From contig CBCXTT010000003.1 in NCBI GenBank assembly GCA_965178295.1, positions 88,114 to 152,113 of the forward strand: 64,000 bases of DNA, written 5' to 3'. The translations under genes were made by a program, and so were the position numbers. Of the stretch, positions 31,439-34,272 are shown one piece after another; within the stretch, counting starts at the first letter, position 1; every line of letters begins with the position of its first letter. Origin of the DNA: Alphaproteobacteria bacterium (lineage in GTDB: Bacteria; Pseudomonadota; Alphaproteobacteria; UBA7879). Below the pieces are notes generated by a model. It saw only the letters and a list, made by a program, of their open reading frames with translations, was not told the DNA's origin and made no database searches.

Positions 31439-32932
31439 ATGAGAGTTTGTTTGAATGTTCAAAATCTTACTGTGGCAACCAACAATGAATCAGCTCCTCT
31501 GGTAAAAAATGTTTCCTTCGTTGTGGAGGAGGGGCATAATACAGCGCTCATAGGAGAAAGCGGTGCTGGAAAAACCATTACAGTGTTGGCGCTTCTTAAC
31601 CTATTGCCTCGACAGCGCTACACAATACAGTCTGGGCAAGTCTTCTTTAAAGGGCAAGATTTACTAAAAATCTCAAAAGAAGAAATTCGGCGTGTACGGG
31701 GGCGTGATATAGGATTTGTATTTCAGAACCCTGGAAATACCTTAAACCCTCTTATGACGATATTCAAACAGCTGTCAGAGGCGGTGTACCTGCATCAACA
31801 GTTAACGCGAGAAGAAATAAAAGAAAAAATTTTTCAGCTTTTGAAAAAGGTGCATTTAACCAGACATGTCTTGCCAAAATATCCTCACACTTTGTCGGGT
31901 GGTGAAAAACAGCGTATTTTGATCGCTATGGCGATTGCAAACAAACCAAAACTACTGATTGCAGATGAGCCTACATCATCATTAGATTTGCTAGTACGAC
32001 AAGAAATTATGACGCTTCTTTCTTCTCTTTCGTCTGAGCTGAATATGAGCATGCTCTTAATTTCACACGATGATTCTGTCATTGCCAAGCTCGCACATCG
32101 CGTGTATTTTATCGATTCAGGAAAGATTGCACCGCCACCACGTTATGCAATGGAAGTCACTCCCTCTCCCAAGTTTGAAGGAGTGCATACGACGCCTCCC
32201 TTACTCTCTTTAGAGGAAGTGGATGTTTTTGTTACCAAAAAAGAGGGTGAGAAAGATCTGATTGTTCAAGGTGCATCCCTTAGGGTGTCAGCAGGAGAAA
32301 GTTTGGGGATCGCAGGTGAAACGGGGGCTGGAAAAACCTCTGTCGCACTTGCTATTATGGGTGTGATGCCGCATGATGGACAACTTTCTTTTTGTGGCGC
32401 TGGGAGTGCTAAGTTGCGCTCTGAAACGCATTACGTTTTTCAAAATCCCATTGCGTCATTTAATCCAAAATTTTCCGTTCGGAGTATTTTTGACGAGACA
32501 TTACGCACAACACACACATCACGCAAAGATTTTTCGAATACAATTATAGATGTTTTACGTGACGTTGGATTAGATATATCTATTTTGAGGCATTATCCGG
32601 ATGAATTATCCGGCGGACAGGCGCAACGAATTGCCATTGCGCAGGCTCTTTTGCGTAAAACTAAGTTAATCATTTTTGATGAACCAACGGCTTCTCTGGA
32701 TAAGCGTGCAAAAAATGGCATAATCAAACTACTACGAGTTTTACAAGACACACGGGGATGTGCGTACATAGTTATTAGCCATGACCTTTTTGTATTGCGC
32801 GCATTGTGCCATCGCATTGCGGTGATGCGTCAGGGACGTATTGTGGAAATATCAGAGGCAGACGATATATTCTTGGCCCCTAAAACATTTTATACGCGAG
32901 AGTTAATCGGGCATTTTAAAGGGATCGAGTAA
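31439..32932 (+). CDS. yejF: ABC transporter ATP-binding protein with two fused ATPase domains (YejF-like). The ATG at 31439 is preferred.
   Basis: Two Walker A sites (GESGAGKT, GETGAGKT), two LSGG signatures and two Walker B sites. Confidence 0.75.
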   Translation: MRVCLNVQNLTVATNNESAPLVKNVSFVVEEGHNTALIGESGAGKTITVLALLNLLPRQRYTIQSGQVFFKGQDLLKISKEEIRRVRGRDIGFVFQNPGNTLNPLMTIFKQLSEAVYLHQQLTREEIKEKIFQLLKKVHLTRHVLPKYPHTLSGGEKQRILIAMAIANKPKLLIADEPTSSLDLLVRQEIMTLLSSLSSELNMSMLLISHDDSVIAKLAHRVYFIDSGKIAPPPRYAMEVTPSPKFEGVHTTPPLLSLEEVDVFVTKKEGEKDLIVQGASLRVSAGESLGIAGETGAGKTSVALAIMGVMPHDGQLSFCGAGSAKLRSETHYVFQNPIASFNPKFSVRSIFDETLRTTHTSRKDFSNTIIDVLRDVGLDISILRHYPDELSGGQAQRIAIAQALLRKTKLIIFDEPTASLDKRAKNGIIKLLRVLQDTRGCAYIVISHDLFVLRALCHRIAVMRQGRIVEISEADDIFLAPKTFYTRELIGHFKGIE

Positions 32933-34272
32933 TGTTAATAAAGAATAGAATAATTGTTTGTATTTTGAGTTTGATGTGTGCATGCATGCATGTGGGGTCT
33001 GATGGATACGGTGAGCCCGGTGCCGGTTCCGACGGGTATGGGGACCCCGAAGACGATAAATCATCCGATAGTTATGAGGATGCCGGTAATCAATCACCAG
33101 ATGAATTGGCGGGTATTGCGTCGCCAAAACCATTAAAAGACCGTGCTCTTGCGATGCAGCAACAAGCACAAGAACAAGCACAAGCAAATGCAGCGATTTT
33201 AGCCGCAGTACAGGGGCAGGCAAATGACTTAGCTCGTGCGAGCATAAAGGCACTTCATGGCGGCGGTGTCGGTGATCTTGAAAAGGTGGAAGAAAACCGG
33301 GCGGTAGGCGCTGCCTCTGCATCTGGCTATGGTGACGTTGCTCAATCAGGGATAAAGGCACTTCATGGCGGCGGTGTCGGTGATCTTGAAAAGGTGGCAG
33401 AAAACCGGGCGGTAGGCGCTGCCTCTGCATCTGGCTATGGTGACGTTGCTCAATCAGGGATAAAGGCACTTCATGGCGGCGGTGTCGGTGATCTTGAAAA
33501 GGTGGAAGAAAACCGGGCGGTAGGCGCTGCCTCTGCATCTGGCTATGGTGACGTTGCTCAATCAGGGATAAAGGCACTTCATGGCGGCGGTGTCGGTGAT
33601 CTTGAAAAGGTGGCAGAAAACCGGGCGGTAGGCGCTGCCTCTGCATCTGGCTATGGTGACGTTGCTCAATCAGGGATAAAGGCACTTCATGGCGGCGGTG
33701 TCGGTGATCTTGAAAAGGTGGCAGAAAACCGGGCGGTAGGCGCTGCCTCTGCATCTGGCTATGGTGACGTTGCTCAATCAGGGATAAAGGCACTTCATGG
33801 CGGCGGTGTCGGTGATCTTGAAAAGGTGGCAGAAAACCGGGCGGTAGGCGCTGCCTCTGCATCTGGCTATGGTGACGTTGCTCAATCAGGGATAAAGGCA
33901 CTTCATGGCGGCGGTGTCGGTGATCTTGAAAAGGTGGCAGAAAACCGGGCGGTAGGCGCTGCCTCTGCATCTGGCTATGGTGACGTTGCTCAATCAGGGA
34001 TAAAGGCACTTCATGGCGGCGGTGTCGGTGATTTGGGTCGCACCACAGCAGGGATGACCCAATTGTCTGAAGAAAATGTGTTGATCGCACGCGGTGTTAG
34101 CCCTGACACTGCAAAAGACTTGTCACAGCTTTCACTGCAATCCACAGCAACTCAAGAACAAGAAAATGCGACAACCACAGAAATTTCAAGCCTTAAAGCA
34201 CGTGCTGTATACAAGCAGGAAATTGCGCAGGACACCGCAGAAGCGCAAAGTGCGTTAGCTGCCGAACAATAG
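32932..34272 (+). CDS. Putative tandem-repeat lipoprotein or secreted protein (446 aa). The N-terminus is Cys-rich and signal-like. It has an acidic Gly/Tyr-rich spacer, a Gln/Ala-rich stretch, then 7.3 copies of a 36-aa repeat.
   Basis: ATG overlaps the yejF stop (TAATG). Signal-like N-terminus MLIKNRIIVCILSLMCAC. Repeat IKALHGGGVGDLEKV[A/E]ENRAVGAASASGYGDVAQSG. Confidence 0.6.
   Translation: MLIKNRIIVCILSLMCACMHVGSDGYGEPGAGSDGYGDPEDDKSSDSYEDAGNQSPDELAGIASPKPLKDRALAMQQQAQEQAQANAAILAAVQGQANDLARASIKALHGGGVGDLEKVEENRAVGAASASGYGDVAQSGIKALHGGGVGDLEKVAENRAVGAASASGYGDVAQSGIKALHGGGVGDLEKVEENRAVGAASASGYGDVAQSGIKALHGGGVGDLEKVAENRAVGAASASGYGDVAQSGIKALHGGGVGDLEKVAENRAVGAASASGYGDVAQSGIKALHGGGVGDLEKVAENRAVGAASASGYGDVAQSGIKALHGGGVGDLEKVAENRAVGAASASGYGDVAQSGIKALHGGGVGDLGRTTAGMTQLSEENVLIARGVSPDTAKDLSQLSLQSTATQEQENATTTEISSLKARAVYKQEIAQDTAEAQSALAAEQ
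33241..34033. repeat. 108-bp tandem repeat array, ~7.3 near-identical copies (one gaa/gca difference), lying inside the CDS
   Basis: Unit starts at 33244, 33352, 33460, 33568, 33676, 33784, 33892 and 34000. Confidence 0.9.

Follow-up and report, generated by a model that had tools for sequence, protein, structure and literature searches.

A tandem-repeat gene begins within the stop codon of a yejF-like gene

Does a gene that begins within the stop codon of a transporter gene take part in transport, or does it only share the transcript? The question is raised by a gene of 446 codons plus stop located at positions 32932..34272 (+ strand) of a 64,000-nucleotide stretch of contig CBCXTT010000003.1, from an alphaproteobacterium of the lineage UBA7879 (the whole stretch is hereafter called the window). 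The gene codes for a tandem-repeat protein and follows the gene for a YejF-like ATP-binding cassette (ABC) ATPase at the end of a Yej-type importer operon. With a confidence only a little above even, we favor the reading that the repeat-bearing protein is exported and belongs to the envelope or host interface, and that its gene shares a transcript with the yej genes but has no part in the transport mechanism.

The TAA stop codon of the yejF-like gene occupies positions 32930-32932 and the ATG of the repeat gene positions 32932-32934, so that the two genes overlap by 1 nt in a TAATG junction (32930..32934, +) that can be read directly from the sequence, as can a Shine-Dalgarno-like AAGGGA located within the final yejF codons, 7 nt before the ATG (32919..32924, +). 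Many other genes of the window have no such element. The reading frame remains intact across all 446 codons, and a 395-aa open reading frame (ORF) in antisense orientation (32903-34090) only shadows the repeat, which is free of stops. An initial annotation of the window, made from the DNA letters alone, had described both the 446-aa ORF and the overlap of its ATG with the yejF stop, and its coordinates and sequence-level description proved accurate. Its proposal that the repeat gene is co-transcribed with yejF and translationally coupled to it is plausible as well, given the lack of a gap, the position of AAGGGA and an equivalent element in a relative (see below).

The repeat gene and the yej genes lie on the same strand, no intergenic space separates the repeat gene from yejF, and a terminator scan found no terminator-like site at their junction. 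Since there is no intergenic space, co-transcription with the yej genes is the default expectation, and we consider it very likely. Promoter-like sites inside yejF occurred at chance level (19 compared to 20.3 expected), and for this reason an additional internal promoter may or may not be present there. According to the mechanism that we propose, the repeat gene would be the fifth and last cistron of the operon, and ribosomes that end yejF translation at the TAA would re-initiate at the overlapping ATG, aided by the AAGGGA element.

The repeat gene is conserved in the only close relative

Among 5.8 billion protein clusters, the YejF-like protein had a single close relative (P0002, 70% identity), encoded on a 2.3-kb Logan contig (locus L066) from run SRR17244156, and the next-best YejF homologs were 36-41% identical. 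In this relative, yejE and yejF are followed by a homolog of the repeat gene; the junction reads TAAcaATG, which leaves a 2-nt gap, and a Shine-Dalgarno-like element, GGGGGA, occupies the place equivalent to that of AAGGGA. The homolog starts at position 1929 of L066 and can be followed to position 2276, its ORF staying open until the contig runs out. The 116 residues of this homolog can be aligned to the first 128 of the window protein, with 48% identity over 112 aa, and the motifs DGYGEP, DSY[EQ]DAGN, ELAGIAxPKPL and ANxAILxAxQGQ are common to both homologs. The first repeat unit, too, can be recognised in the relative, as GGLGGVEGAASGAAMG. The contig of the relative ends about where the repeat array would begin, which fits the behaviour of short-read assemblies at repeats, yet proves nothing.

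Differences between the two homologs number 42, 36 and 72 at first, second and third codon positions, respectively, and are thus mostly third-position changes. The ratio of non-synonymous to synonymous substitution (dN/dS), which is a crude estimate for the repeat gene since dS is saturated, is ~0.22, compared to 0.11 for YejF and 0.03 for YejE, the latter being 90% identical between the window and the relative over the partial gene present in L066. Because of the positional homolog, the third-position bias and the low dN/dS, these comparisons indicate that the repeat gene is a real protein-coding gene under purifying selection. It also appears to predate the split of the two lineages and to evolve faster than the transporter.

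The lineage is almost unsampled, the window proteins present in a collection of 15 billion proteins being singleton clusters from one NCBI contig. The exact repeat protein was absent from this collection in every start variant, although several of its neighbours were present.

The repeat array is nearly perfect

Tandem Repeats Finder detected an array at 33244..34032 (+) with a period of 108, 7.3 copies, 99% matches and a score of 1564, a regularity far above chance expectation. The in-frame 108-bp unit codes for 36 residues, IKALHGGGVGDLEKV[A/E]ENRAVGAASASGYGDVAQSG, which are rich in glycine and alanine, with glycine alone making up 25% of the unit. A copy-by-copy comparison revealed that the sole variable base lies at unit position 47, where copies 1 and 3 read GAA (Glu) and copies 2 and 4-7 read GCA (Ala), and that the copies have zero synonymous differences; the eighth copy is reduced to its first 33 nt. 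Both analyses agree with the initial annotation, which had counted 7.3 near-identical units differing by one A/E codon. The copy number depends on the assembly and its sequencing technology, since seven perfect 108-bp copies are beyond the resolution of short reads.

The copies are perfectly identical while synonymous divergence between the two lineages is saturated, which indicates that the array was recently expanded or is still being homogenised; the absence of synonymous differences thus bears out what had been proposed from the sequence alone. The order E-A-E-A-A-A-A suggests that a two-unit block was duplicated and that the Ala unit was then expanded. The repeat block as a whole would be a product of recent in-frame unequal recombination or replication slippage, and protein length is therefore expected to vary by multiples of 36 residues. 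A partial hexapeptide periodicity can be seen by eye in the unit (Val at positions 9, 15 and 21), but we do not claim it, as Pfam Hexapep gave no match.

Predicted architecture of the repeat protein

The protein's N-terminus, MLIKNRIIVCILSLMCAC, is signal-peptide-like over residues 1-18 (32932..32985, +) according to hydropathy, a PROSITE pattern and an AlphaFold2 helix spanning residues 2-17. It comprises K4 and R6, a hydrophobic run at residues 7-17, and Cys16 and Cys18; the basic n-region is thus followed by the h-region IIVCILSLMCA, as in lipoproteins. The relative has a similar N-terminus, with K2 followed by IFCATLLCVWCL, and in both homologs basic residues precede a hydrophobic run of 12-13 residues and a Cys at position 17 or 18. 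We conclude that both proteins likely carry a Sec-type signal. In the window protein, IVCILSLMCAC (LM-C-A-C18) matches the permissive PS51257-type pattern of PROSITE. The codons of this putative lipobox (MCACMHV) form a short palindromic microsatellite (32974-32994, +), TGTGCATGCATGCATGTG, which contains (GCAT)3; it is too short for a claim of phase variation and lies exactly where a frameshift would abolish export.

Residues 19-67 (32986..33132, +) form an acidic linker rich in Gly, Tyr and Asp that contains DGYGEP, DGYGDP, SYEDAGN and ELAGIASPKPL, motifs that are kept in the relative. This segment is acidic in composition and disordered according to AlphaFold2: residues 23-70 have an isoelectric point (pI) of 4.05 and a charge of -10.5, and the predicted local distance difference test (pLDDT) score stays <50 over residues 15-67. 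The linker is followed by a Gln/Ala-rich predicted helix (residues 68-104; 33133..33243, +), which AlphaFold2 places at residues 68-102 with a pLDDT of ~70 and which is partly conserved in the relative (ANxAILxAxQGQ). In the best AlphaFold2 model, each unit of the repeat block contributes two 10-residue strands (pLDDT 55-65). Beyond the repeats lies a unique acidic C-terminal region (residues 368-446; 34033..34269, +; pI 4.44), predicted to be helical (residues 380-386 and 391-445, pLDDT 67-81), for which neither a family nor a PDB match was found. The acidic DGYGEP/DGYGDP segment, the Gln/Ala-rich stretch and the unique C-terminus noted in the initial annotation are thus all present in the translation.

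The mature protein has a pI of 4.7 and a net charge of -24. Its layout after export would comprise a short signal peptide, a possible lipid at Cys18, a disordered acidic tether of ~50 residues, the Gln/Ala-rich helix, seven identical 36-residue Gly/Ala-rich units acting as a beta-rich rod or a flexible spacer, and the helical C-terminal region.

The repeat protein is an orphan apart from one homolog

A word-indexed search of the 5.8 billion protein clusters with the whole protein returned no match, nor did a word-indexed search of the same clusters with the N-terminal alignment of the two sequences. An exhaustive HMMER search of 1.84 billion representatives returned six matches, all of which are repeat-versus-repeat artefacts (Sel1, ankyrin-like and Ser-rich repeats). 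No homolog was detected in a scan of genome contigs with the repeat protein, and none when metagenomes were scanned for DGYG[DE]P[EA]D and DSY[EQ]DAGN as peptide patterns; back-translated ELAGIAxPKPL gave seven metagenome matches, all unrelated (e.g. enolase-superfamily enzymes). Neither tblastn against plasmid and phage collections nor a PDB sequence search with the repeat protein gave a match, and Pfam, NCBIfam and PHROGs gave no meaningful one. The window itself contains no paralog. Thus, as far as these searches reach, the repeat protein is an orphan apart from the homolog in one relative, and the family has two known members.

Two family assignments were considered and rejected. A repeats-in-toxin (RTX) reading failed because a regular expression for the nonapeptide GGxGxDxUx found no occurrence, only GGVGD being present (8 times). 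According to the other, the 36-residue units would be far-diverged relatives of the Sel1-like (alpha/alpha) repeats that LpnE/EnhC-type proteins of intracellular bacteria contain. The best match of the exhaustive HMMER search was indeed a Sel1-repeat protein with a 36-residue period (P0121, E-value 1.2e-12, 33% identity over 274 residues), but this E-value is inflated by one weak unit-to-unit match counted seven times. Comparison of unit to unit with hhalign gave a probability of 1.2% and an E-value of 0.044, Pfam Sel1 (PF08238) did not match even at E <= 10, and the glycine content of the unit and the strands, rather than helices, modelled by AlphaFold2 are likewise contrary to such repeats. 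We regard this assignment as extremely improbable.

The upstream importer operon and its relation to the repeat gene

Four genes coding for a Yej-type importer precede the repeat gene. The gene in the yejA position (27609..29300, +), whose TTG start is uncertain, codes for a substrate-binding protein (Pfam SBP_bac_5, E-value 5.2e-54) with only weak NikA/Opp-type matches in NCBIfam. It is followed by genes for a YejB-type permease (29290..30399, +; NCBIfam microcin C ABC transporter permease YejB, E-value 4.2e-113, 378 bits versus a cut-off of 445; Pfam BPD_transp_1) and a YejE-type permease (30402..31433, +; NCBIfam PRK15021 microcin C ABC transporter permease, E-value 8.7e-105, 350 bits versus 439). 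The fourth gene (31439..32932, +) codes for the fused ATPase of 497 aa with two ABC_tran domains (NCBIfam YejF, E-value 4.6e-126, 421 bits versus a cut-off of 834); its start lies at 31439 rather than 31313, the 497-aa form being found in the protein collection (P0001). Since the scores of the importer genes fall below curated cut-offs, Yej-like is the safe label. At 497 aa the ATPase falls short of the more usual 530-545 or so, and PF08352, the oligopeptide-transporter C-terminal domain carried by nearly all listed homologs, is missing from it as well as from the relative that is 70% identical.

In the literature, Yej is a four-gene system (PMC9629497, PMC4994006), and in Brucella, Salmonella and Sinorhizobium such systems confer protection from cationic peptides (PMC4994006, PMC9629497, PMC8406287). 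The initial annotation had regarded the repeat protein as a possible accessory partner of this importer, a suggestion that we found unsupported. A scan of genome contigs with YejF recovered only distant loci (22-45% identity), and none of the 22 distant yejF-like loci carries a downstream gene related to the repeat gene. The repeat protein matched none of the transporter families, and its gene is not a recurrent fifth gene at these loci, its adjacency to yejF being kept in one close relative only.

The overlap itself is uninformative about function, because unrelated genes of the window are packed as tightly. The uvrC gene and the CDP-alcohol phosphatidyltransferase gene (pgsA) are 2 nt apart, pgsA is separated by 3 nt from a SpoU methylase gene, a rimM-like gene abuts trmD with a 0-nt gap, the ORFs coding for a UvrD/PcrA helicase, PrmA and an aminopeptidase overlap, and the dac-tmk-holB-metG-tatD genes overlap or nearly touch. 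A TAATG overlap in compact genomes signals shared transcription, not shared function, and the best reading of the link between the repeat gene and yej is accordingly one of shared transcription rather than of transporter mechanism.

Downstream region and genomic context

The repeat gene is followed by a non-coding spacer of 588 bp (34273..34860), in an otherwise tightly packed window, before a convergent gene for a GlnII-type glutamine synthetase. Within this spacer, a terminator scan and a search for inverted repeats found no intrinsic terminator, the fold z-score was -0.57, Rfam gave no match to a known RNA, and only unconvincing small ORFs were present. At 34861-37403 (-), a gene for a TLC ATP/ADP translocase (E-value 1.7e-158) lies directly upstream of the GlnII gene with a 2-nt gap. 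The window also encodes KdsB, cytochrome c, CcmF and an rlpA-dac-tmk-holB-metG-tatD block, which is typical of alphaproteobacteria. Taken together, the translocase and these genes indicate a Gram-negative bacterium that respires and lives inside cells as an energy parasite.

The translocase/GlnII pair is flanked by two tandem-repeat genes. The second, also an orphan, lies 3.3 kb downstream of the first (37534-40180, +) and codes for a signal-like N-terminus (MKNCFLVFFFSFVALSDLSVLA) and a unique domain of 396 aa, after which a 96-bp unit for the Lys-rich HASGGKPKEHAKKPDETKSKAATSKSVDPSPA is repeated perfectly 12.7 times. Its first copy has eight consecutive A residues (A8, 38713-38720) where the others have seven (A7); the frame breaks at 38722-38724 and resumes as an ORF at 38648-40180. 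The break could mean that the gene is a pseudogene, that the homopolymer was misread in sequencing, or that slipped-strand phase variation operates here. The protein collection includes no more of the product than its 396-aa part. Further downstream (48832-53995, +), a pair resembling a two-partner-secretion (TPS) system consists of a ShlB/FhaC-type transporter with a POTRA_2 domain (48832-50493) and a protein of 1156 aa with a signal-like N-terminus (50525-53995), for which neither Pfam nor NCBIfam gave a match, the TPS domain included. In light of the second repeat gene and this pair in the same window, orphan proteins made for export, of which two bear repeats, appear to be characteristic of this genome.

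Proposed role of the repeat protein and alternative explanations

We infer from the conserved N-terminus, the repeats and the genomic setting that the protein is exported, that its copy number may vary and that it may act at a host interface. It would be a lineage-specific, Sec-exported acidic protein of ~42 kDa in its mature form, placed at the envelope or host interface of an obligate intracellular Gram-negative bacterium bearing an ATP/ADP translocase. Several points weigh against this reading. A strict lipobox ([LVI][ASTVI][GAS]C) was found neither in the window protein nor in the relative, and the relative has LSEC17, which fits neither the strict nor the permissive pattern, so that even the loose lipobox is not conserved. 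Of the Cys-containing signal or lipobox proposed initially, the signal-like character thus stands in both homologs and the lipobox only in its permissive form in the window protein, and lipidation at Cys18 is only possible. Location in the periplasm, in the outer membrane, at the surface or in the host is purely conjectural. With one complete allele available, copy-number variation is unobserved, and the length-variable surface antigen proposed in the initial annotation stays a conjecture. The beta-rich rod appeared in 1/5 AlphaFold2 models in both runs (pLDDT 59-61, compared to 26-50 for the others), and Foldseek searches with both models gave only insignificant beta-helix/solenoid matches (all E > 0.1, TM-score <=0.31); we therefore treat the fold as uncertain. 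Finally, adjacency to yejF is conserved in the only available relative, which makes a functional link possible. Such a link would exist if the repeat protein were a true Yej accessory, an N-terminally tethered acidic envelope protein that binds cationic host peptides and either passes them to YejA/YejBEF or shields the envelope. The place right after yejF, overlapping it in the window and 2 nt from it in the relative, each time behind a Shine-Dalgarno-like element, the strong acidity of the mature protein and of its tether, and the role of Yej against cationic peptides in Brucella, Salmonella and Sinorhizobium (PMC4994006, PMC9629497, PMC8406287) would all suit this role. However, a gene order common to two relatives as close as these (YejE 90% and YejF 70% identical) is expected from descent alone, the 22 other yejF-like loci have no related gene, no fifth component has been described for the four-gene system (PMC9629497), and unrelated genes of the window abut or overlap likewise. 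Non-synonymous evolution is also ~2 times that of YejF and 7 times that of YejE, which is atypical of a stoichiometric transporter partner. For these reasons we hold an accessory role to be unlikely. Its bolder form, a lineage-specific fifth component capturing cationic host antimicrobial peptides for the importer with a capacity set by the number of repeats, strikes us as very unlikely.

Nor does the protein fit comfortably with a secreted effector like the tandem-repeat proteins (TRPs) of Ehrlichia, which would leave the cell, for example by type 1 secretion via a C-terminal signal, and act on the host, its N-terminus not being a cleaved Sec signal. Its low pI, its Gly/Asp-containing repeats (GGVGD, 8 times) and its origin in the genome of an intracellular bacterium would agree with such an effector, and its last 50 residues consist of 62% LDAVTSIF and 4% KHPMWC residues, at or above the 38-56% of Ehrlichia TRPs and Ank200 (PMC3417381). 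This composition test is crude, as the whole protein already reaches 53% LDAVTSIF. The basic-then-hydrophobic N-terminus kept in both homologs sets it apart from TRPs, which have no classical signal peptide; the RTX nonapeptide is missing, the window contains no genes for type 1 secretion or its exporter, and no sequence similarity to any TRP was found. We judge an effector of this kind doubtful. The array or its copy number could instead be an assembly artefact, or the gene a decaying and unimportant ORF read through from yejF. Short reads cannot resolve perfect 108-bp repeats, the homopolymer frameshift in the neighbouring repeat gene (A8 versus A7) could stem either from faulty sequencing or from decay of that gene, the protein in its exact form is absent from a collection that holds several of its neighbours, and the contig of the relative stops about at the start of the repeats. 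On the other hand, the ordered E-A-E-A-A-A-A pattern and the clean partial eighth copy are unlike the usual collapsed or mis-joined repeats, the frame is open through all codons, the non-repeat part appears to be under purifying selection, and the first unit has its counterpart, GGLGGVEGAASGAAMG, in the relative. We thus find it improbable that the array is artefactual or the ORF decaying.

If the repeat protein is indeed an exported envelope or host-interface protein, it joins the orphan tandem-repeat proteins that intracellular bacteria export and introduces no new principle, but would be of use for typing strains and as a candidate host-interface antigen in a lineage of which little has been sampled. 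A functional Yej link would carry greater weight, Yej systems being known determinants of resistance to host cationic peptides for which no envelope-side helper has been described.

Comparison with known systems

The importer has the yejA-B-E-F gene order of canonical YejABEF, and YejB, YejE and YejF are the best models for its genes. It differs by scores that fall below the cut-offs and by an ATPase without PF08352; the system as described comprises four genes, with no fifth part.

The exported repeat-bearing orphans of the window offer parallels with several groups of repeat proteins from intracellular and host-associated bacteria, and envelope or host-interface proteins of this type are widespread among obligate intracellular bacteria. 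Strains of Anaplasma marginale differ in the number of repeats in their major surface protein 1a (MSP1a), and elements relevant to adhesion and immunity lie within these repeats (PMC3679145). Like MSP1a, the repeat protein is an envelope protein (here by prediction) of an obligate intracellular alphaproteobacterium, with near-identical tandem repeats of ~30 residues near the N-terminus. However, the two have no sequence similarity, the window gene ends a yej operon, and copy variation and surface exposure are only presumed for its product. With Ehrlichia TRP32, TRP47, TRP75 and TRP120, which are secreted by type 1 secretion without a classical signal peptide (PMC3417381), it has in common that it is an acidic, lineage-specific orphan of an intracellular bacterium with perfect tandem repeats and an LDAVTSIF-rich C-terminus, but its signal-like N-terminus is conserved and no homology was detected.

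The variable surface lipoproteins Vlp, Vsa and Vpma of mycoplasmas have a lipoprotein N-terminus ahead of an in-frame tandem array, and their length depends on how many repeats the array contains (PMC6080569, PMC7954426). The window protein resembles this arrangement through its lipoprotein-type N-terminus and in-frame array. It departs from them in its permissive, non-conserved lipobox, in being encoded by a gene that is single-copy in the window with no switching locus, and in belonging to a Gram-negative bacterium (KdsB). A likeness to beta-solenoid surface proteins (autotransporter passengers such as Ag43, curli CsgA, FapC) is suggested by the one usable AlphaFold2 model, a solenoid-like rod to which every repeat adds a pair of stacked strands, and by top Foldseek matches that are all beta-helix/solenoid; these matches are the insignificant ones given above, 4/5 models are unstructured, and there is neither an autotransporter barrel in the protein nor any curli or Fap export gene nearby. 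The protein family is thus new only in a trivial sense, with two known members, while the kind of object is a familiar one, and its connection with Yej remains one of adjacency.

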